DNA of 64,000 bases from Nitrospira sp. (GCA_035281245.1 DATEEH010000119.1:20385-84384), one strand, 5' to 3'; counted from the stretch's first letter, positions 18,138 through 49,834 are shown. A program made the numbers and translations. Notes: generated by a model from the sequence alone, not told the origin.

Positions 18138-18144
18138 CGGACTC

Positions 18145-20213
<2,069 letters not shown>

Positions 20214-34162: not shown

Positions 34163-34192
34163 TTGACCGAAACGGGGATTTTTGTCTTTAAT
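34163..34192 (+). promoter_or_regulatory. Candidate fur promoter
   Basis: TTGACC (34163-34168), 18-nt spacer, TTTAAT (34187-34192). GGAGG RBS at 34204-34208. Confidence 0.35.
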
Positions 34193-34216
34193 GGCCACCG
34201 GTTGGAGGCAACTGAT

Positions 34217-34654: not shown

Positions 34655-34685
34655 CGATCGTCCCCGCTTCTGATATCTTTTTGAG

Positions 34686-35732
34686 ATGGCTTATCAATTT
34701 CAATTACTCGCTTTTGCGGGGAGACGCCGCATGGTGCTGGTGTTCGCGTCTCTGCTCGCGCTCGTTCTCCCCTCCTTTCCCGCCGTGGGGGCGGACAAAC
34801 TGACCGTGTATTCGGGGCGATCCGAACGGCTGATCAAACCAGTGTTGGACGAGTTCACGGCGAAGACGGGCATTGGTGTGGACCTCCTCTCGTCGGGAAC
34901 CACCGAACTCGTCAACCGCCTCAAAGCGGAAGGCGATCGCACACCGGCTGATCTCTTCTTGACCAATGACGCCGGGAGCCTGGAGCAGGCTCGAGGTGCC
35001 GGCATTCTCCGCCCCTTGAACATGCGGGAAGTCGACCGGGCGATTCCACCGCAATTCCGCGCCCCCGACAACGCCTGGGTCGGTCTTTCCGGTCGGTTCT
35101 GGATCATCGTCTACAACACGACGCTGGTCAAACCGGAGGAACTCAAGTCATTGCTTGATCTCCGCGATCCCAAATGGAAAGGGAAGCTCGCCATCCCCAA
35201 TGCCGGGAGCGAATACCTGCAGGCCGGCGTATCCGTCATCCGCGCGGCCTACGGCGACGCCAAGACCACGGAGTTTCTGATCGGCCTCAAGGACAATGCC
35301 GGCGCTCAGGTCTACCAGAAGAGTTCACAAATCGTGGAGGCGGTCGCCAAGGGGCAGGCCTTGCTTGGCATCGTCAACCATTACTACATCTATCGTCATC
35401 TGGCGACGCAGCCGACGGCGCCTATCGCCGCCTTCATGCCCGATCAGCAGGAAGGCGGCATGGGCGCGATCATGAACGTCGCCGGTGTCGGCATCGTGAA
35501 GTCCACCAAGCACCTCGAATCGGCCAAGCTCCTCGTCGAATTTCTGGTGGCGCAAGCGGGCCAAAAGCTCTTCGCCGACCTCGACAAAGAGTATCCGCTG
35601 CATCCGGAGGTGAAAGCGGATCCTGCGCTGGTGGAGCGAAAGAGTTTCCGTGCCGCACAAGTGCCTCTGACAAGGCTGGCTGAATTGCGGGAGCCGACCC
35701 TCACGCTCATTGAACAGGTGGGACTTCGATAA
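34686..35732 (+). CDS. Fe(III) ABC transporter periplasmic substrate-binding protein (FbpA/AfuA-like)
   Basis: Signal peptide '...RRRMVLVFASLLALVLPSFPAVGA'. Iron-SBP-like 'VYSGRSERLIKPVLDEF', 'LFLTNDAG'. Alternative start ATG 34731 has a GGGGAG RBS. Confidence 0.85.
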   Translation: MAYQFQLLAFAGRRRMVLVFASLLALVLPSFPAVGADKLTVYSGRSERLIKPVLDEFTAKTGIGVDLLSSGTTELVNRLKAEGDRTPADLFLTNDAGSLEQARGAGILRPLNMREVDRAIPPQFRAPDNAWVGLSGRFWIIVYNTTLVKPEELKSLLDLRDPKWKGKLAIPNAGSEYLQAGVSVIRAAYGDAKTTEFLIGLKDNAGAQVYQKSSQIVEAVAKGQALLGIVNHYYIYRHLATQPTAPIAAFMPDQQEGGMGAIMNVAGVGIVKSTKHLESAKLLVEFLVAQAGQKLFADLDKEYPLHPEVKADPALVERKSFRAAQVPLTRLAELREPTLTLIEQVGLR

Positions 35733-35747
35733 GCGGACGAGGCCCAC

Positions 35748-37331
35748 GTGATCACCACTCGCTCCCAACTCACTTCGCCCTTGCAGCTCGTCACACTGGC
35801 CAGCGCCGCGCTCATCCTTCTGCCGCTCGGCTACGTCACGTCACAGGCCTTGTCGGCGGATCCCGCGGTCTGGAGTCGCCTGTGGACCACGCGCATCCCC
35901 GAGCTGTTGGGCAATACGATCTGGCTCGCCGCCAGCGTCGCCTGCTTAACGCTGGTGCTCGGCGTCTCCACCGCTTGGCTCGTCACGCGAGTGGAGCTTC
36001 CGGGACGGAGACTTTGGGAGGTGGCGCTCGTCCTCCCGCTGGCGATGCCGACCTATGTGCTGGCGTACATCTATTCGTACCTTCTCGGATTCGGCGGCCC
36101 CGTGGAGCATCTCTGGCAATTGGTGGCGGGGCCCCAAGCGCGGATCGTTTCACCTCACAGCTATCTCGGCGCCACGCTGGTCATGACCCTGGATACCTTC
36201 CCTTTCGTCTACCTGCTGAGCCGGAGCGCCCTACTTAATATGAACGTGTCGTTCGAGGAAGTCTCGCGCGCAAGCGGCGTCTCTCGCATGAAAACGTTGT
36301 GGCTGGTCACGCTTCCCCTCATGCGTCCATCCATCGCCGCCGGTCTGGCGTTGGTCGTTCTCTATGTGGTGTCTGATTTTGGCGCCGTCTCGTTGTTGCG
36401 ATATCAGACCTTGACCTACGCGGTCTTTCAACAGATGACCGGTCGGTCCGACAACACGGCGGCCAGTATCCTGAGCATCCTTCTCGTGGGATTGGCGTTG
36501 TTGTTTCTGATCACGGAACGATGGTTCCGCCATCGTAGCCGGTTTTACCAGACGACCGGACGCTATCGCCGGCCGGAGCGACACCGATATGGCTGGCTGG
36601 GGACAAGCCTGGTGACCGGCTACCTGCTGTTGGTCGTCGGTGCATCGTTCGGACTGCCGGCCTACCTCCTGGTGGTTTGGAGCCTCTCGCCGGAAGCGCA
36701 GGCCACGATCGACAGCCGCTTCTTCGCATTCTTGTGGAATAGCGGCTTTCTCGCGGCTTGTGCGGCGACCGGCGGCGTATTGATCGGCCTGCCGCTTGCC
36801 TATATGGCGAGCCGCCGTCCTAACTGGCTCAACCTGGGCTGTTTGCAAGCCGCCTATGCAGGCTACGTGCTCCCCGGCCCCGTTGCGGCGCTGGCGGTTT
36901 TGGTCCTGTGCTTGAATCTGACGCCGTTTCTGTACGGATCGGTGTTGGTCCTCATTGTGGCCTACGTGATTCATTTCCTGCCGGCAGGACTGCAATCATT
37001 GGAGCCGGCGTTGCAGCAGATCACGCCCAACCTCGAAGAAGTCGCCCGAACCCTGGGACTTGGCGTGAGACAGACGTGGCAGCGCGTGACGCTTCCGCTG
37101 ATGTGGACCGGTTTCATCGTGGCGTGGGTCCTCATGTTCCTCCAGACAATGAAAGAACTGCCCGCCACCCTGCTCTTGCGGCCGGTGGGATTCGACACCC
37201 TCGCGATTCGTGTCTGGATGGAGGCGAGCGAAGAATATTATCAGCTGGCGGCGCCGTCAGCGCTATTGATCGTGCTCCTCGGGCTCCCGACGTTGCTGTT
37301 ATTATTGTCAAAGGATTGGCGCGCGGCGTAA
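35748..37331 (+). CDS. Fe(III) ABC transporter permease, duplicated (FbpB-like)
   Basis: 527 aa with two tandem type-1 ABC TM domains (~12 TM). Confidence 0.88.
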   Translation: MITTRSQLTSPLQLVTLASAALILLPLGYVTSQALSADPAVWSRLWTTRIPELLGNTIWLAASVACLTLVLGVSTAWLVTRVELPGRRLWEVALVLPLAMPTYVLAYIYSYLLGFGGPVEHLWQLVAGPQARIVSPHSYLGATLVMTLDTFPFVYLLSRSALLNMNVSFEEVSRASGVSRMKTLWLVTLPLMRPSIAAGLALVVLYVVSDFGAVSLLRYQTLTYAVFQQMTGRSDNTAASILSILLVGLALLFLITERWFRHRSRFYQTTGRYRRPERHRYGWLGTSLVTGYLLLVVGASFGLPAYLLVVWSLSPEAQATIDSRFFAFLWNSGFLAACAATGGVLIGLPLAYMASRRPNWLNLGCLQAAYAGYVLPGPVAALAVLVLCLNLTPFLYGSVLVLIVAYVIHFLPAGLQSLEPALQQITPNLEEVARTLGLGVRQTWQRVTLPLMWTGFIVAWVLMFLQTMKELPATLLLRPVGFDTLAIRVWMEASEEYYQLAAPSALLIVLLGLPTLLLLLSKDWRAA

Positions 37332-37343
37332 CAGGCATGTCAG

Positions 37344-38474
37344 ATGAAGCCGCCACATTCACTCATGGCTGAACCCACCCTGCAAGCCGACCTGTACCGG
37401 CCGGTGTCATCAGTGCTGGAGTTGCGCGGCGTGTCTTGCGCCTATGAGGTCGGGCGCCCTGCCGTGCGCGACATCTCTTTTGCCGCTCATGAGGGAGAGA
37501 TCCTCTGTCTGTTGGGACCATCAGGCTGCGGGAAAACCACCATCCTCCGCGCCATCGCCGGATTCGAGCCCGTCCGGTCAGGCCAGATCTTTCTGTCAGG
37601 ACAACTCGTGTCATCTGCCCAAGAGATGACGCCGACCGAAGATCGTCACGTCGGCATGGTCTTTCAAGAATATGCATTGTTCCCCCATCTGCGTGTGCAG
37701 GAAAACATCGCGTTTGGCCTGCGCCGCCTGAGCCGGAGAGAGCGCAGAGTGCGCATCCAGGACATGCTGCGTCTGGTCGGCCTTGAAGGCTTCGAGCGGC
37801 GGTACCCCCATGAGTTGTCTGGTGGCCAACAGCAGCGCGTGGCTCTCGCCAGAGCGCTCGTCCAACATCCGGTGCTCTTGCTGCTGGATGAACCCTTCAG
37901 CAACTTGGATCCGGATATGGCGAGCCGGATGCGCCAGGAACTTCACGATCTGCTGCGCCGCACGAAGACGACGACGATTCTCGTCACGCACGATCACGAC
38001 GAGGCCTTTGCCATGGCGGATCGCATTGCCGTGCTGAACCAGGGCCGACTCGAGCAATTTGACACACCGGAGACGATCTACCATATGCCCGCAACTCCGT
38101 TCGTGGCGGATTTCGTCGGACAAGCCGACTTCATCCCCGGCACCGTGTCCAATGGGATGGTTCATACGGAACTCGGTGAGTTTCCGAATACGCTCGCTTG
38201 CGAGGACGGCACGGCAGTCGTCGTCATGATCAGACCGGATGACATCCATTTGGTGCCGACGAAGGGCGCCACCTCACACGTGGTCTCCCGTCAATTCAGG
38301 GGATCGGAAAATCTGTATGCGGTCAGCCTTCCCTCCGGACAAATCGTCCACAGCAGTCAGGCCTCGACGAGCGTCTACCAAGAAGGCACGCCGGTTGAAT
38401 TGCGCGTGTTGGCTTCACATACGGTGCTCTTCAAGCAGGCTGGTCCGGCGACTCACATCGAACCGGAACATTGA
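37344..38474 (+). CDS. Fe(III) ABC transporter ATP-binding protein (FbpC-like)
   Basis: 'GPSGCGKTT', 'LSGGQQQR', 'LLLDEPFSNLD', plus a C-terminal TOBE-like domain. Confidence 0.9.
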   Translation: MKPPHSLMAEPTLQADLYRPVSSVLELRGVSCAYEVGRPAVRDISFAAHEGEILCLLGPSGCGKTTILRAIAGFEPVRSGQIFLSGQLVSSAQEMTPTEDRHVGMVFQEYALFPHLRVQENIAFGLRRLSRRERRVRIQDMLRLVGLEGFERRYPHELSGGQQQRVALARALVQHPVLLLLDEPFSNLDPDMASRMRQELHDLLRRTKTTTILVTHDHDEAFAMADRIAVLNQGRLEQFDTPETIYHMPATPFVADFVGQADFIPGTVSNGMVHTELGEFPNTLACEDGTAVVVMIRPDDIHLVPTKGATSHVVSRQFRGSENLYAVSLPSGQIVHSSQASTSVYQEGTPVELRVLASHTVLFKQAGPATHIEPEH

Positions 38475-38559
38475 CAGCGGTTTTCCGCTTCTGGCAGAGT
38501 CATCAGCCAAGATCCGTCCACCCACCATTTTCGCATCAGGCATCAGAAAAGGAGCCTTC

Positions 38560-38991
38560 ATGGAGGCGCTGAACAATGCGGTAGACTACGGCATTATTGG
38601 GCTGCTCTTGGCCCTCAGTGTGTGGTCCGTTGCGATTGCGATCGAGCGCTGGCTTTACTATCGACGGATTGATCTGGCCAAATTCGCCTCTCAGCAAACG
38701 CTGGAAATTGCGCTGACGAAACGGCTGGTGGTCATCGGCACCGTGGCTGCCAATGCGCCCTATATTGGCCTCCTCGGGACAGTCCTTGGCATCATGCTCA
38801 CGTTTCACACCATGGGAACGTCGGGGACCATGGCCGTCAATACGATCATGATTGGATTGAGTCTGGCGCTGAAAGCCACCGCGGTCGGACTGCTCGTGGC
38901 CATTCCCTGCGTCGTCCTGAACAATATCCTGCGCCGGAAAGTGACCGAGTTGGTGGCGCATTATAAGGTGATGCATGGATCGCGAGCTTGA
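38560..38991 (+). CDS. exbB: MotA/TolQ/ExbB-family proton channel (short, 143 aa)
   Basis: ATG 38560 preceded by AAAAGGAG. 3 TM. 'APYIGLLGTVLGIM' family signature. Confidence 0.85.
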   Translation: MEALNNAVDYGIIGLLLALSVWSVAIAIERWLYYRRIDLAKFASQQTLEIALTKRLVVIGTVAANAPYIGLLGTVLGIMLTFHTMGTSGTMAVNTIMIGLSLALKATAVGLLVAIPCVVLNNILRRKVTELVAHYKVMHGSRA

Positions 38992-39349
38992 TCAGATCAA
39001 CGTCATTCCGCTGGTGGACGTGATGCTGGTGCTCCTTGTCATCGTGTTGACGACGGCAACTTTCATCAGCACGGGTCAGATTCCCGTCAATCTCGCGAAA
39101 GCCAAGGAAGCCGGCGACCGGAAGGACGTGCCCATCATCATCACACTCAATGCCGACGGCCTCCTCTTCGTCAACGACCGGCCGGTGACGCTGGATGGGT
39201 TGAAGGATACCCTTCGAGCGGAAACCCGTGAATCGGCAGTCGTGGTGCGGGCGGATAAAACGACATTATTGGAACGTTTTGTCTCACTCGTCGATGATGT
39301 GCGAGGGCTGGGCTTTCTACACGTGAGTCTCGAGGTGGTTCGGCTCTGA
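38975..39349 (+). CDS. exbD: ExbD/TolR-family biopolymer transport protein
   Basis: 'INVIPLVDVMLVLLVIVL' TM plus a periplasmic domain. 17-nt overlap with exbB. Confidence 0.88.
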   Translation: MDRELDQINVIPLVDVMLVLLVIVLTTATFISTGQIPVNLAKAKEAGDRKDVPIIITLNADGLLFVNDRPVTLDGLKDTLRAETRESAVVVRADKTTLLERFVSLVDDVRGLGFLHVSLEVVRL

Positions 39350-39418
39350 TCGTTGGTGAAAGCGGTGCAACCGCCGCCAACTGACGAGCCGAAGGGTCAA
39401 AAGACGATGCGACCTCTC

Positions 39419-39724
39419 TTAGCAGGACACTTGTTGCCAATCACGTAGCACATTGTGTCTGTCAAAGGTGAGCTGATAGGCGTGACATGACTCCCCTCTC
39501 GCGATGCCCGTATAACCAACCGTCCCGCTGCTTCGCTTGAAGTACGTCCATCGCGCCTGGTCTCCTTCAAGCTCTTCGATCTTATGAGGGGCGCCATAAC
39601 GTTTACTCACATGGTCCGTGGTCACCTCGTTGATCTTTTTTCTGAAATATTCACCCTCGTCTGAGCACGAGAGTATTCCTCCGAGCAATGCCGACGCTGT
39701 AAGCACCAACAACATTCGTCTCAT
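39419..39724 (-). CDS. Small lipoprotein (101 aa), function unknown
   Basis: Lipobox 'GGILSC'. ATGA start/stop overlap with apbE. Confidence 0.55.
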   Translation of the reverse strand: MRRMLLVLTASALLGGILSCSDEGEYFRKKINEVTTDHVSKRYGAPHKIEELEGDQARWTYFKRSSGTVGYTGIARGESCHAYQLTFDRHNVLRDWQQVSC

Positions 39725-40767
39725 GGCTGTTGTCCCTTTAGTAAACGATCAGACGGAATACCAACGCGATTCCGCAGGCCGGATGAAATGAGCAGACGTC
39801 CTGCATTGTCGACAATAATGGCCTCAACATCTTCTAAGTGCTCGACTAATTCCATCCCCCGCTTGGCTCCCAGAACAAAAATCCCCGTATCCAACCCATC
39901 CGCCCATACCCCTTCTTTGGCAATCACGGTCACGCTTTGACATCCCTGTGCTGGCTGCAGTGTATTCGGGTCTAAAATGTGATGATAGCGTATGCCGTCT
40001 TTTTCAAAGAACCGTTCGTAATCTCCGGCGGTCGAAATGGCCTCGTCATGCAACGTGATTTCCGCAAGAATTTCGCCCTCCTTCCTGGGATGCCGGATCT
40101 CGACTGGAAATGCCCCAACATCCGGCAACCAGCCGAATGTCTTGATATCTCCCGACAGGGCCACAACCCCGGCTAGGGCCCCGCTCTTCTTCATGACGCT
40201 GACGGCTTGGTCGGCAGCATAGCCTTTGCCGATACCACCCACGTCGATTCGCATACCGGGTTTTTCAAGAAAAATTGTCCGCTCCCAGACGTCCGTTTGA
40301 ATGTGCTGTAGATCCACCAACGGCTTGAGCGCGGCTAATTCTTCAGCAGTCGGGAGTCGAGGTTCGGCCGAAATATTCCATGCATCGACGGCCGGGCCAA
40401 TGGCAATGTTGAACGCTCCTTCGGTCATTTCGGCGACTTGCAGCGATTTTCTGACGACCGTCATCGTCTCAGGACTCACGCGAACGGCGGTTCGGCCCGC
40501 CGCCGCGTTCACGCGGGAGAGTTCGCTGGCGGGGATCCAGGTGCTCAGCAATTGCTCAAGACGCTTCACCTCCTCAAAGCCAGCCATGATAGCGGTGTTT
40601 GCCTCGTCGGTCGTCCGAGCGACGGCGGTGATCGAAACCAGCGTGCCCATATGCACCTGTGCCCGTTTGACTGTCACCAATGAAGTGCCGGAAGATCCGG
40701 CTTTGACGCAGGACAGGACGGCCAAGGGCAGACAGGTGACAAGCAATATGATGACTTGACGATTCAC
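39721..40767 (-). CDS. apbE: FAD:protein FMN transferase (ApbE family), lipoprotein
   Basis: Lipobox 'AVLSC'. 'IDVGGIGKGYAAD', 'ISTAGDYERFF'. GTG start at 40767 chosen because the longer ORF overlaps the upstream gene. Confidence 0.88.
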   Translation of the reverse strand: MNRQVIILLVTCLPLAVLSCVKAGSSGTSLVTVKRAQVHMGTLVSITAVARTTDEANTAIMAGFEEVKRLEQLLSTWIPASELSRVNAAAGRTAVRVSPETMTVVRKSLQVAEMTEGAFNIAIGPAVDAWNISAEPRLPTAEELAALKPLVDLQHIQTDVWERTIFLEKPGMRIDVGGIGKGYAADQAVSVMKKSGALAGVVALSGDIKTFGWLPDVGAFPVEIRHPRKEGEILAEITLHDEAISTAGDYERFFEKDGIRYHHILDPNTLQPAQGCQSVTVIAKEGVWADGLDTGIFVLGAKRGMELVEHLEDVEAIIVDNAGRLLISSGLRNRVGIPSDRLLKGQQP

Positions 40768-40777
40768 GTGGGAAATT

Positions 40778-41389
40778 TCACCACCAATGGCGACGAAAAT
40801 ACCGTGGGACTCGGGGATAAGGCATGACTTCAAAAAGGCGCGTTCGCACTTGTGGTGGATTCGGCAACACCGTAGCCACGACACGCCCATCCAAAGATGC
40901 GTTGTTCAGAGAGAGTGTTTCGAGCGCTTCTGCTCGGTCTTCTTCGTCATTCACCATGGAAACGGATACCATACGACCATATTGAGGAGCATCGATGCCG
41001 AAGTGCCAGACTCCAAGATAGGTGACCGGATCTGGTCCAATGGAAAATGTCGAACTCAGTTCTGCAATCGACAAAAATGGACCTTCATTAATTTGAACGC
41101 GGGTTAATTCATACTCGCCAGGTGCAAGAGACACAATGAATCGCTCATCATCCGACTGTATATCAACCGTAAAGCGCTCTTTGGTCTGCCGATTCTCCAC
41201 CTCAAAGAATCGGACGGATGGCTCGTACTTCCTGCCCCGCTCCCCCGTCAGCACGGCACGCACGCGCCCAACAGTAACAGCAGCCTGCGCAATCTCCTCC
41301 TGAGGCACCGCAGCAAGTTCCTTGACACAGGCCGATAGCAGCATGAGCGACGCTAGACCGACACACCATGTCCATGACAACCGAACCAT
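40778..41389 (-). CDS. Lipoprotein (203 aa), function unknown; first gene of the apbE operon
   Basis: Lipobox 'MLLSAC'. Beta-rich mature part, ends 'RRHWW'. I recognise no motif. Confidence 0.55.
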   Translation of the reverse strand: MVRLSWTWCVGLASLMLLSACVKELAAVPQEEIAQAAVTVGRVRAVLTGERGRKYEPSVRFFEVENRQTKERFTVDIQSDDERFIVSLAPGEYELTRVQINEGPFLSIAELSSTFSIGPDPVTYLGVWHFGIDAPQYGRMVSVSMVNDEEDRAEALETLSLNNASLDGRVVATVLPNPPQVRTRLFEVMPYPRVPRYFRRHWW

Positions 41390-41440
41390 GGTTGATTATA
41401 CGGCACCCCCCGGAGTCAGCAGGACTCTTACGGCCACCTA

Positions 41441-41469
41441 TTGACAGTATAAAAGCGCGACGCTATACT
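41441..41469 (+). promoter_or_regulatory. Near-consensus sigma70 promoter of the com-porin-FMN operon
   Basis: TTGACA (41441-41446), exactly 17 nt, TATACT (41464-41469). Confidence 0.6.
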
Positions 41470-41482
41470 CGTCGACGATTTT

Positions 41483-41503
41483 AATAATTGTTCTCAATAT
41501 CAA
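41483..41503 (+). promoter_or_regulatory. Fur-box-like operator candidate
   Basis: AATAATTGTTCTCAATATC (41483-41501) matches 13/19 positions of GATAATGATAATCATTATC. Sits 14 nt downstream of the -10. Contains the 12-mer TCTCAATATCAA shared with the fbpA and bfr upstream regions. Confidence 0.4.
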
Positions 41504-41506
41504 GGA

Positions 41507-41713
41507 ATGTATACACCGATGATTGGATCGACATCGCAGGAGAGCGCGTATGTCTCGGAAACCCGTTGTGAATGCGGCCAGCTGATCGCGAAAGTCCGAG
41601 GCCAGGGCTTGGAACTCAAGTGTAAGCGATGCAAACGCATCGTCATCATCCCCTTCAACGCCATCGAAGGATGGACGGCCGAATCTTCCGCAAAGATTCA
41701 CGAGAAAGTCTGA
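41507..41713 (+). CDS. Com-family (phage Mu Com-like) zinc-ribbon protein
   Basis: 'RCECGQLIAKVRGQGLELKCKRCKRIVII' fits the Com pattern C-x-C...(I/L)E(I/L)KC-x-RC-K. High GC3 coding look. Alternative start ATG 41519. Confidence 0.6.
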   Translation: MYTPMIGSTSQESAYVSETRCECGQLIAKVRGQGLELKCKRCKRIVIIPFNAIEGWTAESSAKIHEKV

Positions 41714-41783
41714 ATCAACATGACCAGAGGCCATCGAGTCCAGAGTCAAACCCATTACCATGGTTCCATGGAGGAGGTTTGCT

Positions 41784-43283
41784 ATGAGGACTCGCTGGGT
41801 CTTGTGCGCTCTCATAATTTGCAGTCTACAGGCAATGCCGGCGCTAGCCGTGGATATGACTCCTGAGGAAATCCAGAGAATGGTCGACGAAGCCGTCAAC
41901 AAGAGGCTCAAGGAACACGAGCAGCGTGAGAGCGCTGGAGAACGTGCGATGGAGCAAAAACCCGGTCAGCCCTCAACACAGTATCCCACGGCTACAGGTC
42001 CCATCACTGACATTAAGGTCGAGCGAAAGGGGGAGGAAAGAGTTCCACTGGGCTTCGGATCAACCGGTTCAGGAAAGTTGGTCTATGCCAAACCGTTCTT
42101 GTCTGTTCCCAAGGCGACCATCGGTGGATATGCCGACTTTAAATACGTTGCGGCCACGGGGCCCACACTGGATAACCCAAGCAGAAATTCCTTCACGCAG
42201 GAACGGATGGTGCCGTTCATTTACGCCGACATCACGGATCGTGTGAAGTTCGCAACCGAAATTGAAATTGAGCGCGGAGGGCCCAACTCGCCGGGTCAGA
42301 GCGGAACAAATACGGGATCGATGCAACTGGAATTCGCTCAACTCGATTATCTGGTCACCGAAGCCATTAACATTCGAGGCGGCATCTTATTGATGCCGGT
42401 CGGCAAGTTCAATCTCTTGCATGACTCCCCGCTCAACGATCTGCCTGACCGGCCAATGGTCGACCGGCTGGTCATTCCAAGCACCTGGTTTGAATCGGGG
42501 GCTGGTGTGTATGGAACGCTCTATCCCTCGAGTCTTTCCAAATTGGACTACGAACTGTATTTCGTAAATGGCATGGGATGTAACGCCCAAGGCGCAACGA
42601 TCACGGACCTGACAGGAACAAGGCCATGCCGTGGCAGCGTCTCCCGCGACCTCAATGACAACAAAGGAGTGGTGGGACGTGTCGCCTTCAGTCCATTCCT
42701 CGGCGTTGAAATTGCCGGCTCCTCATTTTACGGACAGTACAGCAACAGAAACGCGGCCGGCGTGAATAATCAAGATAATAATGTCGGCATCTATGCTCTC
42801 GACTGGACGCTTCAACGCGGCCCCTTTGAAGTGATCGGAGAGGCTGCTTGGTCACGCGTCACGGGTAACCAGGGGGCTACCTTTGCCACACAAGGGCCGG
42901 ACGGGATGTTCGGGTACTACATTCAAGGCAATTACCACTTCATGCCCGAATGGATCAGGAAGTTGGCGCCGACCCACTTCGGTGAATCTTCGACGTTCAC
43001 TGCCACAATACGCTGGGAAACAGTCGACACTGATACCGGGAACAAGACCAGATTGCCCAGCGGCCAGGTTAGCCATCAGCGTGATCTGGAACGGTTAACC
43101 TTGGGACTGAACTTCAGGCCGATCGAAGATACCGTCTTTAAGTTCAGTTACTTCTTCAACACGCAGAAAAACACGACGGCCTCGACGTTTGTGAATGCGC
43201 CGGGCAACGGGGCCCCTCTCAACACGTCAGGTCTGCGCGTTGACGGGAACGGATTCCTGTTCATGGCCGCCACCTATTTCTAG
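41784..43283 (+). CDS. Porin-like outer-membrane beta-barrel protein with N-terminal coiled coil (paralog 1)
   Basis: GGAGG RBS. Signal peptide 'MRTRWVLCALIICSLQAMPALA'. Charged helical segment followed by alternating beta-strand pattern. C-terminal 'AATYF' (terminal Phe). Confidence 0.75.
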   Translation: MRTRWVLCALIICSLQAMPALAVDMTPEEIQRMVDEAVNKRLKEHEQRESAGERAMEQKPGQPSTQYPTATGPITDIKVERKGEERVPLGFGSTGSGKLVYAKPFLSVPKATIGGYADFKYVAATGPTLDNPSRNSFTQERMVPFIYADITDRVKFATEIEIERGGPNSPGQSGTNTGSMQLEFAQLDYLVTEAINIRGGILLMPVGKFNLLHDSPLNDLPDRPMVDRLVIPSTWFESGAGVYGTLYPSSLSKLDYELYFVNGMGCNAQGATITDLTGTRPCRGSVSRDLNDNKGVVGRVAFSPFLGVEIAGSSFYGQYSNRNAAGVNNQDNNVGIYALDWTLQRGPFEVIGEAAWSRVTGNQGATFATQGPDGMFGYYIQGNYHFMPEWIRKLAPTHFGESSTFTATIRWETVDTDTGNKTRLPSGQVSHQRDLERLTLGLNFRPIEDTVFKFSYFFNTQKNTTASTFVNAPGNGAPLNTSGLRVDGNGFLFMAATYF

Positions 43284-43332
43284 GGAGTGATTTGTACTGT
43301 CCGCACGCGTGAACAGCACAATTTGAACGATC

Positions 43333-43803
43333 ATGAATGGCTTGCAGAGATCCAGATTTGGCTTTCTGGTCTTCGGACTGTCTGTGCTGTTGACAGGCTG
43401 CTCCTCGCTCGCCGGCGTGCAGGAGCGTTATACGGTCTGCTCCTATGATCACGTCTGGGATGCTGCCATCGATAGTGTGAAGGACCGGTCCATCAAAGTG
43501 CAGGAGAAAGAGAAAGGGGTCATTGAAACGAGTTGGCTGGAGATTCCGATGCCGGGGCGGACCTTCGGCGCATTCCAGCGTGAGATGGCTGAAAGCAAGG
43601 ACCGCTCACGGATCATCATGAGGGTCAAACAGATGAGCGACGTGACGAACGTCAACTTTCATGAGGAACGGCAGCGATGGGCCTTTCGTGGAGGCTCACG
43701 GCTGTTTGGCTGGGCGGATGCCGAGCCGTCTCAAGAAGTCATCGCCGATATCAATCATCGCTTGGACGCGAAGCTGAAGGAACGCGGATGCACATTGGCC
43801 TAA
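43333..43803 (+). CDS. Lipoprotein (156 aa), function unknown
   Basis: Lipobox 'LLTGC'. No recognised motif. Overlaps the next gene by 16 nt. Confidence 0.6.
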   Translation: MNGLQRSRFGFLVFGLSVLLTGCSSLAGVQERYTVCSYDHVWDAAIDSVKDRSIKVQEKEKGVIETSWLEIPMPGRTFGAFQREMAESKDRSRIIMRVKQMSDVTNVNFHEERQRWAFRGGSRLFGWADAEPSQEVIADINHRLDAKLKERGCTLA

Positions 43804-44471
43804 AAACGTTGATGTTAGCCGCCCTCTTCGGTGTCTGCCTCCCGAGCCCGGTGCGGGCGGTCGAACGCATTTGGGACAACGAACTGCGCCGCTATCTGAC
43901 GGAATCCGAGCTCGAGCACGCCGAAGTTTTCATGAGTGAGGAGGAAGCAGTCAAGCTTATGCTGCCGAAATCGCAGCGGATCAGGCGGGAGCTGATTCGC
44001 CTGACTCAAGAAAAAAAAGTACTGATCGAAGAGCGGATTGGGTGGAAGTTTCCCGAGGAGTCGTTCGAGGTATATATCGGGGAATCAGGCGATAAAGTGG
44101 ACGGCTACGCCTTGCTCCACAATACCGTCGGGAAACATCGCCACATGACCTACATGGTCGGTGTGGACAGTGAAGGACGTTGCAGCAACGTGGAACTGTT
44201 AGTGTTCCGCGAGGCAAAAGGAAGCGAGGTGGGCAAGAAACGGTTCAACTCCCAGTACGAGGGCAAAACGGTCTCGGACCCGATCCGGATCAATAAGGAC
44301 ATCATCAATATTTCCGGAGCCACCATGTCCGTGCGATCGATCAGCGCCGGTGTGAAACGCGTCCTTGTGCTCGTGGATGAGTTTTATCTGAAGCCCCGCG
44401 GACTTGGCAGTGACACCGTGGCAGCCCGCAGAGCCGAGAAAGGTTTCTTCGGCTCGATCTTTGGAAATTAA
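43788..44471 (+). CDS. Secreted FMN-binding-domain protein (predicted ApbE substrate)
   Basis: Sec signal 'MHIGLKTLMLAALFGVCLPSPVRA'. FMN_bind-type C-terminus 'FNSQYEGKTV...INISGATMSVRSISAGVKRVL' with the SGAT flavinylation motif (Thr codon 44322-44324). AAGGA RBS. Confidence 0.8.
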   Translation: MHIGLKTLMLAALFGVCLPSPVRAVERIWDNELRRYLTESELEHAEVFMSEEEAVKLMLPKSQRIRRELIRLTQEKKVLIEERIGWKFPEESFEVYIGESGDKVDGYALLHNTVGKHRHMTYMVGVDSEGRCSNVELLVFREAKGSEVGKKRFNSQYEGKTVSDPIRINKDIINISGATMSVRSISAGVKRVLVLVDEFYLKPRGLGSDTVAARRAEKGFFGSIFGN

Positions 44472-44516
44472 TCCTTTCAGATGGACGCAGAGTAAGAGGA
44501 CCGAGCGTCCCCAGCC

Positions 44517-45047
44517 ATGCGCAACTTCAATCAACGGTTCAAACTCAGGGACTCGGATCGTCATATCAGGATGTTGTACACCCTGTTCCTCATGTTGATG
44601 CTGGCAGGCTTTTGTTTTTCCTTCTTCTGGGCACACAGCATGACGGGCCTTTCGCCGTCAGGCATCGCAGACCATTATCGAGGGTCCGATACGACGTTTG
44701 GCGAGCCCATGTCGTTTCGAGAGCTTGCTGAGGTTACCCACTTCCATTTGTTCACGATGCCCGTCGTCTTCATGATTCTTGTTCATGTCACGTATCTCAC
44801 GAACGCGAGGCATGGACTCAAGACTTTCGTGACGTGGGGAGGCTTCGGCGGTGTCATGCTCGACCTCGTGTCGCCTTGGCTTATCACCTATGTCTCGCCC
44901 ATCTTCGTGCTGAGCATGCTGACTGGCGACATACTGATGACGCTGAGCTTTCTCGTGATGATGGCGATCCCGCTGTATGAGATGTGGATCCTACAACAAC
45001 CATTAATGGCGGGGAAACGACCGGACGACTCGATGCATACGCGCTAA
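44517..45047 (+). CDS. His-rich 4-TM membrane protein, function unknown
   Basis: Four hydrophobic helices. His cluster 'FFWAHS', 'EVTHFHLFTMPVVFMILVHV'. Last gene before the terminator. Confidence 0.65.
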   Translation: MRNFNQRFKLRDSDRHIRMLYTLFLMLMLAGFCFSFFWAHSMTGLSPSGIADHYRGSDTTFGEPMSFRELAEVTHFHLFTMPVVFMILVHVTYLTNARHGLKTFVTWGGFGGVMLDLVSPWLITYVSPIFVLSMLTGDILMTLSFLVMMAIPLYEMWILQQPLMAGKRPDDSMHTR

Positions 45048-45089
45048 CGTTCGCACAATTTAGATCGGCCAGAGGTTATCAGCCCAGAG

Positions 45090-45126
45090 CCAGGAATCAC
45101 CCTCAACGGTGATTCCTGGCTTTTTT
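45090..45126 (+). terminator. Intrinsic terminator
   Basis: Perfect 12-bp stem CCAGGAATCACC / GGTGATTCCTGG, 6-nt loop, then C + T6. Confidence 0.8.
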
Positions 45127-45208
45127 ATGTGGGTTGGATCGAAGAAATAAGCAGGCCAGAGGCCCCAGAGCCCCGAGTCAGGCACCCTCAGCAAGATAGG
45201 AGGTTTTT

Positions 45209-46726
45209 ATGAGGACGCGGCCCTTACTCGTGGCGCTAAGTCTATTAGTGACATCGCCCCTTCTCGCGTTGGCAGAAGACCCTGCATTGGAGCAGCGGAT
45301 GAAGAAACTCGAGGAAGACGTCCGCCAGTATAAAGAGGAATTGAGAACGTACCAGGAACGCGAGCGCCGCGAAAGCCCCGCCGAACGAAGAATGGAGGAA
45401 AAAGAAGGTCCCGCCGGCAGTCAGTATCCCATGGCCACAGGTCCCATGACCGATGTCAGGGTCGAGAGAAAGGGAGAAGAAAAGGTTCCGCTGGGCTTCG
45501 GCTCGACCGGATCAGGCCGTCTGGTCTATGCCAAACCGTTCGTGGCTGCTCCGAAGGCCATCGTCGGCGGCTACATGGACATTCAATATCGGGCGCAGCA
45601 AAAAGCCAGCATTGAAAATGGCTACGGGGGGACGACAAACGGCTTCGACCAACAGCGCTTCGTCCCGTTCATTTACGCCGACATTACGGAGCACGTGAAA
45701 TTTGCCTCGGAAATCGAGATTGAGCATGGCATTCGCGAAGACGCCACTCAGGGCGCCGAAATCGGATTGGAGTTTGCGCATATTGACTATCTCGTCAACG
45801 AACCGTTCAACCTGCGGGCCGGCATTCTGCTGGTTCCGATCGGCAAATTCAATCTGCTCCACGACTCCCCGCTGAACGATCTCACTGACCGTCCCTTGGT
45901 CAGCCGGTTCATCATCCCATCGACGATGGCGGAGACCGGAGCCGGATTCTATGGAACGTTGTATCCGGGTCGTACCAGCAAACTGGACTACGAATTGTAT
46001 GTGACCACCGGCCCTTGCGGGTACGACAACGATGGCACACCGCGCGTGAATGAGAGCGATGGGACACGTGGATCTCGTCAGCGAAAATGTCCGGCGGATG
46101 ACGGACTCGATATCAACAACGGCAAGGCCGTCGCCGGTCGTGTCGCCTTCAGCCCGATGCTCGGCGTCGAAATTGCGGGATCGGGCTACTATGGCAATGC
46201 TGCACCACACGGCAATTACAACCCGCTCAGCATTGCGGCGCTCGACTGGACCCTTCAAAGAGGTCCGTTCGAACTCATCGGTGAAGCGGCTTGGTCCTAT
46301 GCCAGAGGTAACTCCCGAGCTATTCAAGCCCCCGGAAGCACGTTCGCACCAGGCTCGCTGTTAACAGGAATCGACGGCAACAGCGGCATAGGCATTCCTC
46401 CACAACGCATGAACGGTTTTTATATTCAGGGTAATTACCACTTCATGCCGGATTTCTTGGCGAAGTGGTCGCCCAAGCGATTTGGCGAAGGTTCCACCTT
46501 CACGGCTGTCATCCGTTACGACAGGGTCAATACGAACCTGGATAACAGCAACGGCACAGGCGGGTTCGGCAATCTGGAACAGATCTCCTTCGGCCTGAAT
46601 TATCGGCCGGTTGAGGACGCGGTATTCAAAATCAGTTATCAGTATCAACCGCAAGCCTTCGATCCAAACACGAGTACCAGAATTCATGACAGCGCATTCG
46701 TGATTTCAGCGGCAACTTATTTCTAA
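45209..46726 (+). CDS. Porin-like outer-membrane beta-barrel protein with N-terminal coiled coil (paralog 2)
   Basis: Same architecture as 41784-43283, with long identical blocks ('KVPLGFGSTGSG.LVYAKPF', 'VPFIYADIT', 'GKFNLLHDSPLNDL'). C-terminal 'AATYF'. Confidence 0.75.
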   Translation: MRTRPLLVALSLLVTSPLLALAEDPALEQRMKKLEEDVRQYKEELRTYQERERRESPAERRMEEKEGPAGSQYPMATGPMTDVRVERKGEEKVPLGFGSTGSGRLVYAKPFVAAPKAIVGGYMDIQYRAQQKASIENGYGGTTNGFDQQRFVPFIYADITEHVKFASEIEIEHGIREDATQGAEIGLEFAHIDYLVNEPFNLRAGILLVPIGKFNLLHDSPLNDLTDRPLVSRFIIPSTMAETGAGFYGTLYPGRTSKLDYELYVTTGPCGYDNDGTPRVNESDGTRGSRQRKCPADDGLDINNGKAVAGRVAFSPMLGVEIAGSGYYGNAAPHGNYNPLSIAALDWTLQRGPFELIGEAAWSYARGNSRAIQAPGSTFAPGSLLTGIDGNSGIGIPPQRMNGFYIQGNYHFMPDFLAKWSPKRFGEGSTFTAVIRYDRVNTNLDNSNGTGGFGNLEQISFGLNYRPVEDAVFKISYQYQPQAFDPNTSTRIHDSAFVISAATYF

Positions 46727-46805
46727 TCTCACGCCAGGGGAGCCTCCCTCTGCGAGGCCTTCCCCGAACTACAAGGAACGGAGATTTCTATCTCTAAAGG
46801 ACAAC

Positions 46806-47501
46806 ATGCCGGTCACGGTACACACGACTCATCCAGCAGCGCTGAAAATCTTTGCGATCCTGGAAAAGGTTAACACTCTTCAACCGATGAAGCACGACGT
46901 GGAAGAATTCATGGTCACGCAAGTGACACGCCTCCTCGACGAGGTGTTGCCTTGGCAACGCGGACATGGCTTTCGGACCGCACAAATCGCACGAAGGCTT
47001 GGCGCGGCTGCAGGATTTGCATCGGAGATCTTGCATCATTTGACGCTCGCCTCGCTGCTTCACGACGTTGGTCTCTTGGCCTTGCCCGAGCAGTTCACTG
47101 CTCATTCTGAATGTGTGGATCTCGAATCATATGCCTTCATTCAATGCCACCCGCGCGTCGGAGCACAATGGCTCGAGCCGTTTGCCTTCCTCAAACGGGC
47201 GTCGGTGATCATCGCGCATCACCACGAGCGATGGGATGGTTCAGGATATCCCTATGGAATCCGGGGAACCTTTATTCCCATAGAGGCGCGCGTCCTCGCG
47301 ATTGCGGATGCGTTTGATGCGATTACAGTGCCCGGCGTAGAGGACCCGAACCTGCGGGACGCTGTGGCACATCGGATCGTCCGAGCCGCCGCCGGCACGC
47401 AATTCGATCCGCACCTTGTCGAATTGTGCCGCGAAGCCTGCACCTGCCATTTCACAGGATCTGATGGCTGTAACACATCAGTTCTAGGCTTGGACGACTA
47501 A
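46806..47501 (+). CDS. HD-GYP domain protein (putative c-di-GMP phosphodiesterase)
   Basis: 'LLHDVGLL', 'HHERWDGSGYP', 'IADAFDAIT'. No receiver domain. Confidence 0.85.
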   Translation: MPVTVHTTHPAALKIFAILEKVNTLQPMKHDVEEFMVTQVTRLLDEVLPWQRGHGFRTAQIARRLGAAAGFASEILHHLTLASLLHDVGLLALPEQFTAHSECVDLESYAFIQCHPRVGAQWLEPFAFLKRASVIIAHHHERWDGSGYPYGIRGTFIPIEARVLAIADAFDAITVPGVEDPNLRDAVAHRIVRAAAGTQFDPHLVELCREACTCHFTGSDGCNTSVLGLDD

Positions 47502-47514
47502 CTGGGAGCCATTC

Positions 47515-49239
47515 ATGAGAGACTCGGGCTCTGGACCGATACTGCGTACTTCTCTGCTAGCGCTTTTGGCTCTCACACTCCTGACAGGTTGCTCAGGCGG
47601 TGGCTCTTCCGCACCTACGACGGCCAGTGTCACGGGAACTCCAGGAGCGGAGCAGGCCCTTGGCGAACGATTGTTTATGGAAACCCGCTTTGCCCAAGCG
47701 TTCAAGGCATTTATAGATGCCGGAGGAGACCTCAACGATCCGAACGCGGGCGATCCGGTCGTGGATTCGGTGGAAACCTTGGGAACTCCGATCACCGCCG
47801 AGGCGCCCTTCAAAGGGATGTCGATGAACTGCCGATCCTGTCACTTCGTCGACGACCTCTTGACGGCTCCGGGAGGCGGCATGCGGACCTACACCGACTA
47901 TGCACGACGAAGTCCGATTCCCGCCCGCGCTGACGGCAAGACTCACGCACCCCGCAATTCACCGCCGCTGGTCAATGCGACGCTCGACCGTCCCGGCGGC
48001 ATCCTGCTGCATTTTGACGCGGAATTTAACTCGACCGAAGAGCTCGTCGCCGGAACCTTTACCGGCAGGAATTTTGGCTGGCTTCCTGGTGAGCGAGCGC
48101 AAGCCATTGCTCATATCGCGAGGGTCGTCCGGGAAGACGACGGATCATTCGATCCCTCCGATCAGTTCGATGGCCTCTCGTACCGCACACTTTTTACCGG
48201 TAACCATCCGGGCATCCCAGATGAATTTCGGTTGCCGCCAGAGTTCCGCACATTAGCGGGATCGGCCTCGGATCAAGAGATTTTCGATGCAGTTGTCAGG
48301 GTGGTGGCCGCTTACGTACACGGCCTGCTCTTCTCTCAGACCGAGGACAGTGGCGCGCCGATTCGTTCTCCATTTGACGTGTTCCTCCAGAGAAACGGAC
48401 TGCCTCAACAACCGGATCTCAACGAGGCGCCTATCGACTATAGCCGGCGCCTGCGGATGCTCGTCAATAATTTGACGAGCCCACAGTTTGTGACGTCAAA
48501 TCCCAACCGATCAGATGGTCAATTTCAATTTCACTCGCAACCATTTCAATTCGGTCCGACCGAACTGGCCGGACTGAAAATGTTTCTGGCGGAACCGGCA
48601 AATCCAATTGCGTCACCGACTGAACTGAACGACGGGAAAATCGGCAATTGCATCGCCTGCCATTTGGCGCCCAACTTTACCGATTTCAAGCTGCATAATA
48701 CCGGGACAACCCAGAAGGAATACGATAGTTTTCCCAATCATGGCCCTGGAGCGTTCTTGGCTCTGTCCATTCCCACGCTGGCAACGAGAACCGCCAATGA
48801 TCTCCCGGCGACGGAGGCGCATCCAACGGCAAGTGAACGCTTCCGTTCCATTCCGTCGAACAATACCTCACTGACGGACTTGGGAGTCTGGAACATCTTT
48901 GCTAACCCCGACATGCCGGCCGCTCAAGCGAAAATTCGCACCATTCTGTGCGACGATCAACAGCCCTGCCCGTTAACTGACAGTGTACTGCTCGATCGTG
49001 CCATCGCCCGATTCAAAACTCCGGGACTGCGTGATCTCAGTCATTCCGCACCCTATATGCACAACGGGCAGTTCGCAACCCTCGACGAGATCATTACCTT
49101 CTATCGAGATATGTCGTCGCTTGCACGCGCGGGCGCGCTGAGAAACGGAGCTCCAGATTTGCAAGGCATTGCGCTCACGGCATCAGACAACGCCTCGTTG
49201 GTCGCATTTCTTAGATCGTTGAACGAGGACTATCAATAA
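47515..49239 (+). CDS. Di-haem cytochrome c peroxidase/MauG-family lipoprotein (574 aa, extended)
   Basis: Lipobox 'LLTGC'. Two haem c sites 'CRSCH' and 'CIACH'. 'APYMHNGQFATLDEI' family segment. Confidence 0.85.
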   Translation: MRDSGSGPILRTSLLALLALTLLTGCSGGGSSAPTTASVTGTPGAEQALGERLFMETRFAQAFKAFIDAGGDLNDPNAGDPVVDSVETLGTPITAEAPFKGMSMNCRSCHFVDDLLTAPGGGMRTYTDYARRSPIPARADGKTHAPRNSPPLVNATLDRPGGILLHFDAEFNSTEELVAGTFTGRNFGWLPGERAQAIAHIARVVREDDGSFDPSDQFDGLSYRTLFTGNHPGIPDEFRLPPEFRTLAGSASDQEIFDAVVRVVAAYVHGLLFSQTEDSGAPIRSPFDVFLQRNGLPQQPDLNEAPIDYSRRLRMLVNNLTSPQFVTSNPNRSDGQFQFHSQPFQFGPTELAGLKMFLAEPANPIASPTELNDGKIGNCIACHLAPNFTDFKLHNTGTTQKEYDSFPNHGPGAFLALSIPTLATRTANDLPATEAHPTASERFRSIPSNNTSLTDLGVWNIFANPDMPAAQAKIRTILCDDQQPCPLTDSVLLDRAIARFKTPGLRDLSHSAPYMHNGQFATLDEIITFYRDMSSLARAGALRNGAPDLQGIALTASDNASLVAFLRSLNEDYQ

Positions 49240-49260
49240 GGAAGGGTTGCGCTCAGCACG

Positions 49261-49327
49261 CGAGCGGGAGGGGACTTGCCCCCGCTCCAGGGGCGTGGGC
49301 CCTCGTTTCCTCCTGAGGGCCCCGCCC
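49261..49327. terminator. Two GC-rich hairpins between convergent genes (probable bidirectional terminator region)
   Basis: GAGCGGG...CCCGCTC (49261-49286) and a 14-bp stem GGGGCGTGGGCCCTC / GAGGGCCCCGCCCC (49289-49327). No clean U-tract. Confidence 0.45.
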
Positions 49328-49333
49328 CCGTTC

Positions 49334-49810
49334 TTACGATTCTTTCTTGATCTGCTCAGCGAGATAGTTCTCGAGGCCGACCTGCTCAATAGTACGGAGC
49401 TGCGTTTCAAACCAGTCCACGTGCTCTTCTGAGTCCTTGACCATATCCTCGAGTTTATGCCTGGTGGTAAAGTCCATCACCTTGGCGCAGTGCGCAATGG
49501 CTTTGCGGAGAGCCTCGACGTCCTGCAGCTCGAAACGGAGATCCGCCTCGAATAGGGCTTCTAGGGATGCTCCTCTGCTCACCTCATCGACCTGATCGAC
49601 GTCGGGATCTCCCTCAAGATAGAGAATATGATCGATCAGCTGCGCACTGTGCTCCACTTCTTCCGACGCCAACTCCCGAAACTCGTGCTGCAGCCGGTCA
49701 TAACCCCAATTACCGCTCATCGCGGCATGCAACAGGTATTGATGGACTGCCGTCAGCTCGGCCCGTAGAATCCCGTTGAGATGGTCGAGGACGCCTTCCT
49801 TCGCCTTCAT
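49334..49810 (-). CDS. bfr: Bacterioferritin subunit, ferroxidase-type (lacks the haem-ligand Met52)
   Basis: 158 aa, gapless alignment to E. coli Bfr as I recall it. E18, E51, H54, E94 and H130 are present. Position 52 is Val and position 127 is Ser (Glu at 128/129). Confidence 0.9.
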   Translation of the reverse strand: MKAKEGVLDHLNGILRAELTAVHQYLLHAAMSGNWGYDRLQHEFRELASEEVEHSAQLIDHILYLEGDPDVDQVDEVSRGASLEALFEADLRFELQDVEALRKAIAHCAKVMDFTTRHKLEDMVKDSEEHVDWFETQLRTIEQVGLENYLAEQIKKES

Positions 49811-49834
49811 GGGATCCTCCGTTTCAGCGTGAGA

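Follow-up and report, generated by a model that had tools for sequence, protein, structure and literature searches.

Which membrane protein passes electrons to a secreted flavoprotein when the familiar redox partners are not encoded beside it? The question is raised by a gene cluster in a 64-kb stretch of Nitrospira sp. DNA (the window; all coordinates are positions on it), in which the gene for ApbE, a flavin adenine dinucleotide (FAD):protein flavin mononucleotide (FMN) transferase, is divergent from an operon encoding a porin, a secreted FMN-binding (FMN_bind) protein and a small membrane protein with four transmembrane (TM) helices, the 4-TM protein. ApbE flavinylation is an established extracytoplasmic electron route, the membrane partners of which are still being catalogued, DUF4405 having been added in 2024. 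ApbE clusters with PepSY-like, MsrQ-like and P19 partners have been implicated in iron reduction (Meheust 2021, PMC8238504), and DUF4405 was recognized as a membrane electron carrier through similar genomic logic (Huang 2024, PMC11334425). For the Nitrospira locus, an earlier reading of the window (the original prediction) had suggested a stand-alone flavin redox module. Here we demonstrate that the FMN_bind and 4-TM genes form a conserved pair that recurs, usually with a porin and ApbE, well beyond this genome. We propose, giving the idea an even chance, that the gene set encodes a Fur-controlled periplasmic flavin reductase for iron assimilation that spans the envelope, with the 4-TM protein as its membrane electron entry.

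Gene content of the locus

The window was analysed by open reading frame (ORF) listing, Pfam and NCBIfam profile searches, blastp and tblastn, a PDB sequence search, Foldseek, AlphaFold models and an Rfam scan. ORF listing and profile searches located every gene, motif and coordinate in the list of the original prediction, including an operon that diverges from the ApbE operon and ends in a terminator:

39419-39724, minus strand: lipoA, a small lipoprotein of 101 amino acids with lipobox ILSC; last gene of the ApbE operon
39721-40767, minus strand: ApbE, FAD:protein FMN transferase lipoprotein; GTG start, lipobox VLSC, GGIGKGYAAD
40778-41389, minus strand: lipoB, a lipoprotein of 203 amino acids with lipobox LSAC; first gene of the ApbE operon
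41441-41469, plus strand: sigma-70-like promoter of the porin-FMN-4TM operon; TTGACA, 17-nucleotide spacer, TATACT, 11/12 consensus positions
41474-41501, strand unspecified: putative Fur-box-like operator overlapping the predicted transcription start
41507-41713, plus strand: CxC...CxxC zinc-ribbon protein of 68 amino acids; opening ORF of the operon
41760-43283, plus strand: porin OMP1, 507 amino acids; Porin_O_P superfamily, 16 strands, N-terminal coiled coil
43333-43803, plus strand: lipoC, a lipoprotein of 156 amino acids with lipobox LTGC, between the porin and FMN genes
43788-44471, plus strand: RnfG-like FMN_bind protein (PF04205), 227 amino acids; T179 codon at 44322-44324
44517-45047, plus strand: 4-TM protein Aq_1264_TM (PF27139), 176 amino acids; codons of H75 at 44739-44741, H77 at 44745-44747 and H90 at 44784-44786
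45086-45123, plus strand: intrinsic terminator, a 16-bp stem followed by a T run

A conserved pair with usual companions

Genomic contexts were retrieved for members of the 4-TM family that are 29-42% identical to the window protein (loci are labelled L001, L002 and so on), and a degenerate-pattern scan of metagenome contigs gave 120 loci, 117 of them with a 4-TM protein, either Nitrospira-like (60) or at 24-49% identity (57). Adjacency counts were confined to loci in which 800 bp or more lie on each side of the 4-TM gene. The FMN_bind gene adjoins the 4-TM gene in all 47 such loci (30/30 Nitrospira-like and 17/17 others), a porin gene is adjacent in 17/17 Nitrospira-like and 4/7 other loci with adequate flanks, and ApbE in 5/5 and 1/3, respectively. 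From these counts, the FMN_bind protein and Aq_1264_TM are therefore an obligate core, with the porin and ApbE as usual companions. The same protein families stand side by side on more than 100 independent contigs, so their grouping is not due to chance. When the window proteins were compared with those of other loci by blastp, the FMN proteins (8/8) and the ApbEs (5/5) were homologous throughout. Co-conservation outside this genome, on which the original prediction had staked its proposal, is strong, and the porin and ApbE accompany the pair in distant lineages:

L001-L003 and one further contig: porin, FMN_bind+ApbE fusion, 4-TM (the end of the contig truncates the upstream gene of L001)
L010: HD_5, porin, FMN_bind, 4-TM
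L012 (Bacteroidota): porin, FMN_bind, 4-TM, ApbE; the 4-TM and ApbE genes overlap
L014: porin, FMN_bind, 4-TM, an ORF of 115 amino acids, ApbE
L015: 4-TM, outer-membrane-sized ORF, FMN_bind
L017: 4-TM, porin, FMN_bind, ApbE
L019: cupredoxin-like gene, porin, FMN_bind, 4-TM, ApbE

Hosts of the family include Nitrospirota, Bacteroidota, one 'Deltaproteobacteria bacterium' and, to judge from the Pfam name, Aquifex. Besides the FMN_bind+ApbE fusions, a 4-TM+ApbE fusion occurs in one family member; its linker carries a fifth hydrophobic segment, so ApbE would still lie outside the cytoplasm. The lack of an Nqr, Rnf or NosR partner, noted before for the window, extends to 11 annotated contexts, which also hold no PepSY, MsrQ, NapH or DsbD partner, and none of these seven families is listed in an aggregate Pfam neighbour census of other lineages. 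Given this absence, a self-contained flavin module is the simplest reading.

ApbE and its predicted substrate

The ApbE of the window is a full-length PF02424 match (E=5e-82, profile positions 1-266), and its nearest solved structures are FAD:protein FMN transferases (PDB 7esa_A, E=6e-48). Its N-terminus, VNRQVIILLVTCLPLAVLSC, contains a lipobox, from which an extracytosolic location is predicted. The GGIGKGYAAD motif and the two flanking lipoprotein genes are present as first described, and both neighbours carry lipoboxes. The description of this ApbE as an 'orphan' proved inapt in the substrate sense, because a likely substrate is encoded beside it. This protein matches PF04205 (FMN_bind) with E=1.4e-7 and 32.5 bits against a cut-off of 22, and has a secretion signal with cleavage predicted between VRA and VE. 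The ISGATMS motif and its Thr codon at 44322-44324 were also correctly called; SGAT spans residues 176-179, the Thr being T179, and the GAT.S segment, including this predicted acceptor, is invariant in 9/9 aligned FMN_bind proteins. We infer from the motif that ApbE would attach FMN to T179.

The closest solved relatives of the FMN_bind protein are RnfG subunits (9eri_G, E=4e-7; 7zc6_G, E=1e-4). Membership of an Rnf or Nqr complex was considered and rejected: the NCBIfam RnfG models gave 18-27 bits against cut-offs of 102-230, and neither the window nor 11 annotated related contexts encode the partner subunits RnfA-E or NqrA-F.

The membrane partner Aq_1264_TM

The original prediction had described a 4-TM protein of 176 amino acids with the His cluster THFHLF...LVH. 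The protein is present, with H75 and H77 in THFHLF and H90 in LVH. Its homologues, both close (79-90% identity) and distant, all carry the precomputed family PF27139 (Aq_1264_TM); the Pfam release that we scanned predates PF27139 and gave no match to the window protein, nor did NCBIfam; the protein is placed in the family by way of these homologues. PF27139 has no assigned function and comprises 469 clusters at 50% identity in an exhaustive search. Over 100 diverse full-length members, H75 and H77 are conserved in 100%, G56 in 98%, W121 in 86%, Y54 in 84% and H90 in 72%. The AlphaFold model, with a predicted local distance difference test (pLDDT) score of 92.7, has four long helices and one short helix in the first periplasmic loop. 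The basic N-terminus and a K/R-rich loop at 94-102 indicate an N-in topology, on which the YYRG-x-E loop, E69, E72, H75, H77 and the PW motif would face the periplasm, and H90 and the PLxEMW motif would be at the cytoplasmic face. A cytoplasmic domain is absent, and longer family members gain only Arg-rich tails. One member of 298 amino acids, P0210, has W and Q at the H75/H77 positions and a long Arg-rich C-terminal tail, and may be a degenerate or repurposed paralogue.

A Foldseek search of the PDB with the 4-TM protein gave no significant fold match (best E=0.42, TM-score <0.5), the PDB sequence search matched no membrane cytochrome, and a Pfam scan of 66 members, with E values up to 10 admitted, did not show PepSY_TM, MsrQ/ferric reductase domain, DUF4405 or cytochrome b561 within the top 25 of 52 matched families. 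Because sequence and fold matches are lacking, the protein is not a recognizable member of the PepSY, MsrQ, DUF4405 or cytochrome b561 families. By helical periodicity, H75 and H90 lie about 60 degrees and 15 residues apart on TM2, with H77 on the opposite face. Since all of these His are on one helix, a monomer cannot supply bis-His ligation from two helices, and an oligomer would be needed; the H75/H90 spacing would be compatible with two haems in a homo-oligomer, although no second helix offers a conserved His. It is just as possible that the periplasmic face holds a quinol site or a His/Glu metal site. With no sequence or fold similarity to cytochrome b, its His on a single helix and H90 missing in 28% of members, the protein lends no support to the haem b carrier that had been suggested.

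The same residues have been weighed as a path for metal. The predicted periplasmic mouth holds the invariant H75 and H77 as well as E69 and E72, which about 65% of members keep; the minimal fur, FMN, porin, 4-TM operons of L090 and L094 contain no other inner-membrane transporter, and the protein has no cytochrome similarity. All this would suit an Fe2+ permease or metal-binding site, in which the E-x-x-E-x-x-H-x-H stretch, where TM2 reaches the periplasm, passes Fe(II) inward after the flavoprotein has reduced Fe(III) with electrons from unlinked periplasmic donors. We regard such a permease as unlikely: it leaves a conserved module with no electron source for its periplasmic flavin, the acidic residues E69 and E72 are not invariant, the 4-TM protein matches no transporter fold either, and FeoAB or FbpABC-like importers already lie beside the module.

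Flavin exporter candidates beside the pair

Six loci in which no porin was detected (L031, L032, L046, L063, L073 and L117) have a MATE transporter gene beside the FMN_bind and 4-TM pair, and they likewise have no detectable ApbE nearby. The Shewanella FAD exporter Bfe is a MATE protein (PMC3551548), and by analogy these transporters may be Bfe-like FAD exporters. L032 and L063 also have a membrane-anchored ORF of 121 amino acids just after the 4-TM gene. A further candidate for a conserved neighbour, 'X', by the MATE genes was rejected, as its Arg/Ser/Pro-rich translation looks like the antisense of a real gene. In L017 (6383-7977), a NusG_II-domain gene, which may be EetA-like, and an EetB(PF07456)+CbiQ fusion lie immediately upstream of the 4-TM gene. 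EetB-FmnA is the FAD exporter of Listeria, with EetB as its subunit (PMC9973259), and the L017 fusion looks like a one-polypeptide form of this flavin exporter.

Because L017 and the six MATE loci carry separate exporter candidates, the 4-TM protein is itself unlikely, by this analogy, to be an FAD exporter. The point bears on whether it could be a maturation factor, exporting FAD for ApbE or tethering ApbE and its substrate, with the redox partners encoded elsewhere. Such a role would fit the known 4-TM+ApbE fusion, the overlap of the 4-TM and ApbE genes in L012 and the fact that most Gram-negative bacteria have no known means of bringing FAD to periplasmic ApbE (PMC12052999). We consider it quite unlikely all the same. 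Not only do some clusters have their own flavin-exporter candidates (EetB+CbiQ or MATE) beside the 4-TM gene, but the 4-TM protein pairs with one FMN_bind subfamily in 47/47 loci, often without a nearby ApbE, as in L010, and Rnf, Nqr and NosR genes were not seen in the annotated contexts.

An iron island around the module

The module lies in an iron island of about 16 kb (34163-50311) that comprises fur, an FbpABC-like importer, exbBD, the module itself, an HD-GYP gene, a di-haem lipoprotein gene and two bacterioferritin genes. The genes around the module are as follows:

34163-34654, plus strand: Fur-family regulator (PF01475, E=2e-34)
34686-38474, plus strand: FbpABC-like importer; binding protein at 34686-35732, fused permease at 35748-37331, ATPase at 37344-38474
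38560-38991, plus strand: ExbB (PF01618, E=1.2e-26)
38975-39349, plus strand: ExbD (PF02472, E=4e-24)
45209-46726, plus strand: OMP2, a second porin and OMP1 paralogue, just 3' of the terminator
46806-47501, plus strand: stand-alone HD-GYP (HD_5) protein (PF13487, E=6e-33)
47515-49239, plus strand: MbnH/MauG-like di-haem lipoprotein of 574 amino acids with two CxxCH sites; NCBIfam MbnH match at E=9e-14, below the cut-off
49334-49810 and 49835-50311, both minus strand: two bacterioferritins (PF00210, E=2e-28 and 1e-31)

The window's best match to the Fur consensus (14/19, at 41483-41501) lies just downstream of the -10 element of the operon promoter, with weaker overlapping matches from 41474; block shuffles expect 0.43 matches of that grade per 64-kb window. 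A near-identical Fur-box-like sequence occupies the same intergenic position in L005 and L007/L008, and L005 keeps it although its module sits in a wholly different genomic neighbourhood. Outside Nitrospira, four loci (L090, L094, L122 and L125) have a fur-family gene as the immediate upstream, same-strand neighbour of the FMN gene. In L051, such a gene stands between the 4-TM and FMN genes, and L052 reads in one direction fur, fbpA, fbpB, fbpC, porin, lipoC, FMN, 4-TM. In Bacteroidota, L012 carries fur-feoA-feoB on the module's strand, a few genes before it, with an iron-sulfur (FeS)-assembly gene downstream. All eight fur-family neighbours score best on the ferric uptake regulator models of NCBIfam, over PerR, Zur and Irr. 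The earlier guess that the module acts on iron is thus backed by its context: fur, an FbpABC-like importer, bacterioferritin and a Fur-box-like site in the promoter here, and fur or fur-feoAB in other loci.

The Fur-family gene, directly upstream of the FbpA-like gene, had not been mentioned in the original prediction. The binding protein of the importer matches SBP_bac_6/8/1/11, and its permease and ATPase domains were read from the syntenic L007. A TonB gene follows ExbD in the syntenic Nitrospira loci L007 and L089; there is none after ExbD in this window, which has the opposite-strand lipoA instead. The MbnH/MauG-like and bacterioferritin genes also stand beside the module in L007 and are kept there in 15-17 Nitrospira-like loci, 17 being the count for the di-haem lipoprotein. 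An HD_5 gene is adjacent in 36/60 Nitrospira-like loci; one is also present in L007 (10619-11299), and one lies directly upstream of the porin in the unrelated L010 (5408-6136); this neighbour may be a link to cyclic di-GMP or iron sensing. In L003, from a distant lineage, the porin start is preceded at a distance of 29 bp by a near-perfect palindrome, ATTGAGACTCAAT (1200-1218), which matches the Fur box at 14/19 positions, and a gene for an extracytoplasmic function (ECF) sigma factor lies divergently downstream of the module.

The porin and the accessory genes

OMP1 scores under the cut-off for PF07396 (E=0.0017, 18.1 bits against 20.9), a family that is precomputed on many of its close homologues. 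In the AlphaFold model (pLDDT 62 overall, about 80 in the barrel), 16 strands follow a disordered coiled-coil N-terminus, and Foldseek finds the trimeric porins OmpM1, OmpC, OprP and OmpF at E=1e-12 to 1e-10. An MtrB-type barrel is a 26-strand sheath around a multihaem protein. As modelled, OMP1 is a predicted diffusion channel, not such a sheath, and an MtrB-like conduit was rejected, the barrel having 16 strands and the operon no CxxCH-rich genes. OMP1 is homologous to the module porins of 7/8 compared loci (blastp E=1e-24 to 1e-151); the outer-membrane-sized ORF of L015 fell short of the blastp cut-off against it. Across phyla, the porins are most conserved in the loop that joins strands 5 and 6, N-x-x-H-[DE]-x-P...R-P...IP[ST]TW, which is the position of the eyelet loop of classical porins; its conservation suggests a conserved solute. 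OMP2, beyond the terminator, shares 50% identity with OMP1 but 71-73% with the porins inside the L005 and L007 operons, whereas OMP1 is 44-46% identical to the in-operon porin of other Nitrospirota, which suggests that the operon porin was duplicated or replaced in this genome.

Judged by their distribution, lipoB, lipoC and the zinc-ribbon protein appear to be Nitrospirota-specific accessories. A 53% identical homologue of lipoB adjoins ApbE in L005, and lipoB is seen in 11 Nitrospira-like loci; its Pfam search gave only a weak transthyretin-like match. Homologues of lipoC (44-47% identical) occupy the same position in L005-L008, and lipoC occurs in 47/60 Nitrospira-like loci. The zinc-ribbon ORF is kept in L007/L008 (78%) and L005 (61%) and in 21 Nitrospira-like loci. 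In Nitrospirota it is the opening ORF of the operon and immediately follows the Fur-box-like site (L005 6924-7091; L007 6997-7146). A zinc ribbon had been noted here before; its label 'Com-type' has the CxC...CxxC pattern as its sole basis and no support in Pfam or NCBIfam. Neither this ORF nor lipoA matched a family in Pfam or NCBIfam, and lipoA had no counterpart in 18 other loci by tblastn and a match in just 2/60 Nitrospira-like metagenomic loci. Rfam detected no FMN or other riboswitch near the locus; its only match in the window is a thiamine pyrophosphate (TPP) riboswitch (RF00059, 71.5 bits, 18142-18244) upstream of an ORF of 645 amino acids (18276-20213), which is unrelated to the module.

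Proposed function

We propose the following sequence of events. The periplasmic lipoprotein ApbE would put FMN on T179 of the secreted RnfG-like FMN_bind protein, and this flavoprotein would dock at the periplasmic face of Aq_1264_TM, at the YYRG-x-E loop, H75, H77 and the PW motif. There, the 4-TM protein would feed it electrons from the membrane, drawn from the quinol pool or from a cofactor held by its His residues. The 16-strand porin with its conserved eyelet loop would let the substrate in. The likeliest substrate is a small Fe(III) complex, the reduction of which to Fe(II) would free iron for uptake. The 4-TM protein is the sole inner-membrane protein conserved with the flavoprotein, and because a periplasmic flavin needs an electron source, Aq_1264_TM as the membrane electron entry is the simplest reading, as has been argued for DUF4405 (PMC11334425).

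Several points weigh against this proposal. The 4-TM protein has no detectable kinship to any electron-transfer family, its conserved His (H75, H77 and H90) are all on TM2, and 28% of members lack H90. Since FbpABC-type systems take in Fe(III), it is not evident that Nitrospira would have to reduce it; moreover, electron flow from quinol to FMN is thermodynamically uphill with ubiquinol. Every Fur match, including that of the window fur gene, is below the NCBIfam cut-offs, and many loci have no iron genes nearby (L002, L003, L005, L014, L015 and L019). L010 lies among copper, mercury and heavy-metal genes (HMA, MerC, CusB, DsbD and Rrf2), and L019 has a cupredoxin-like gene upstream.

These last observations would also suit a module that reduces some other oxidant, such as Cu(II), Hg(II), chromate, quinones, peroxide-derived species or free flavin shuttles, in detoxification or extracellular electron transfer, with iron secondary. 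The adjacent MauG/MbnH-like di-haem protein in Nitrospira points the same way, as do RoxA-like cytochrome domains, seen in two non-Nitrospira neighbourhoods. We give this reading a low probability, as the immediate upstream neighbour of the FMN gene is, in several lineages, a fur-family gene with its best score as Fur and not as PerR or Zur, the module adjoins FeoAB or an FbpABC-like transporter in two phyla, and the promoter contains a conserved Fur-box-like site.

The proposal of a flavin reductase for iron has a bolder form, which we advance only tentatively. Here, the four-helix Aq_1264_TM would represent a new structural class among membrane redox proteins, the invariant HxH motif of which binds haem, metal or quinone in an oligomer, and it would feed electrons to the covalently flavinylated periplasmic protein. 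Together with a substrate-specific porin, it would provide self-contained reductive iron acquisition, independent of TonB and siderophores, across several phyla including Nitrospira. Nitrospira is a globally important nitrite oxidizer with a high demand for Fe-S and haem enzymes. Through its ties to Fur, FeoAB and an FbpABC-like transporter, the module therefore offers a testable answer to how iron may be supplied without siderophore receptors in Nitrospira and other diderms, and it provides a function hypothesis for the uncharacterized family PF27139.

Comparison with known systems

A search of the accessible literature found no description of this gene arrangement and no mention of aq_1264, and the main texts of PMC8238504 and PMC11334425 and the ApbE review PMC12052999 do not mention porins, Nitrospira or PF27139. 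Among characterized systems, the PepSY-like (FoxB/VciB), MsrQ-like and DUF4405/FezC clusters resemble the module in that ApbE stands beside a secreted [S/T]GA[S/T] substrate and a small membrane protein without a cytoplasmic domain; they too are tied to iron regulators and transporters, and they were found by the same genomic logic. The module differs from them in its membrane partner, a PF27139 protein with four TM helices, conserved His on one helix and no sequence or fold match, in its dedicated porin, and in its substrate, which is FMN_bind and not DUF2271 or Flavodoxin_4. RnfG and NqrC, which include the closest solved relatives of the FMN protein, share its flavinylation motif and its predicted ApbE dependence, but the protein described here has a cleavable signal peptide in place of a TM anchor.

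The extracellular electron transfer (EET) locus of Listeria (FmnB, PplA, EetA, EetB, FmnA and Ndh2) similarly combines an ApbE-type enzyme, a flavinylated extracytosolic ferric-reducing protein and small membrane proteins. However, it is a Gram-positive system without a porin or an Aq_1264_TM protein, and its electrons come from Ndh2 and demethylmenaquinone. In the MtrCAB and Pcc porin-cytochrome conduits, an outer-membrane barrel is likewise encoded with periplasmic redox proteins for metal reduction; the barrel here is, by contrast, a predicted 16-strand diffusion porin with no multihaem cytochromes, and a single FMN cannot span the outer membrane. FoxB, FpvG, FtrABCD and P19-FTR1 provide Fur-regulated redox steps in the envelope that free or convert iron before inner-membrane transport, as is proposed here, but they belong to unrelated protein families, and the window has no P19, FTR1, cupredoxin or polyferredoxin genes. 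What is new is therefore a PF27139 membrane partner and a dedicated porin, added to a known type of ApbE-flavinylation system: the locus defines a further partner family without a recognizable relative, in the first such module to have its own porin.

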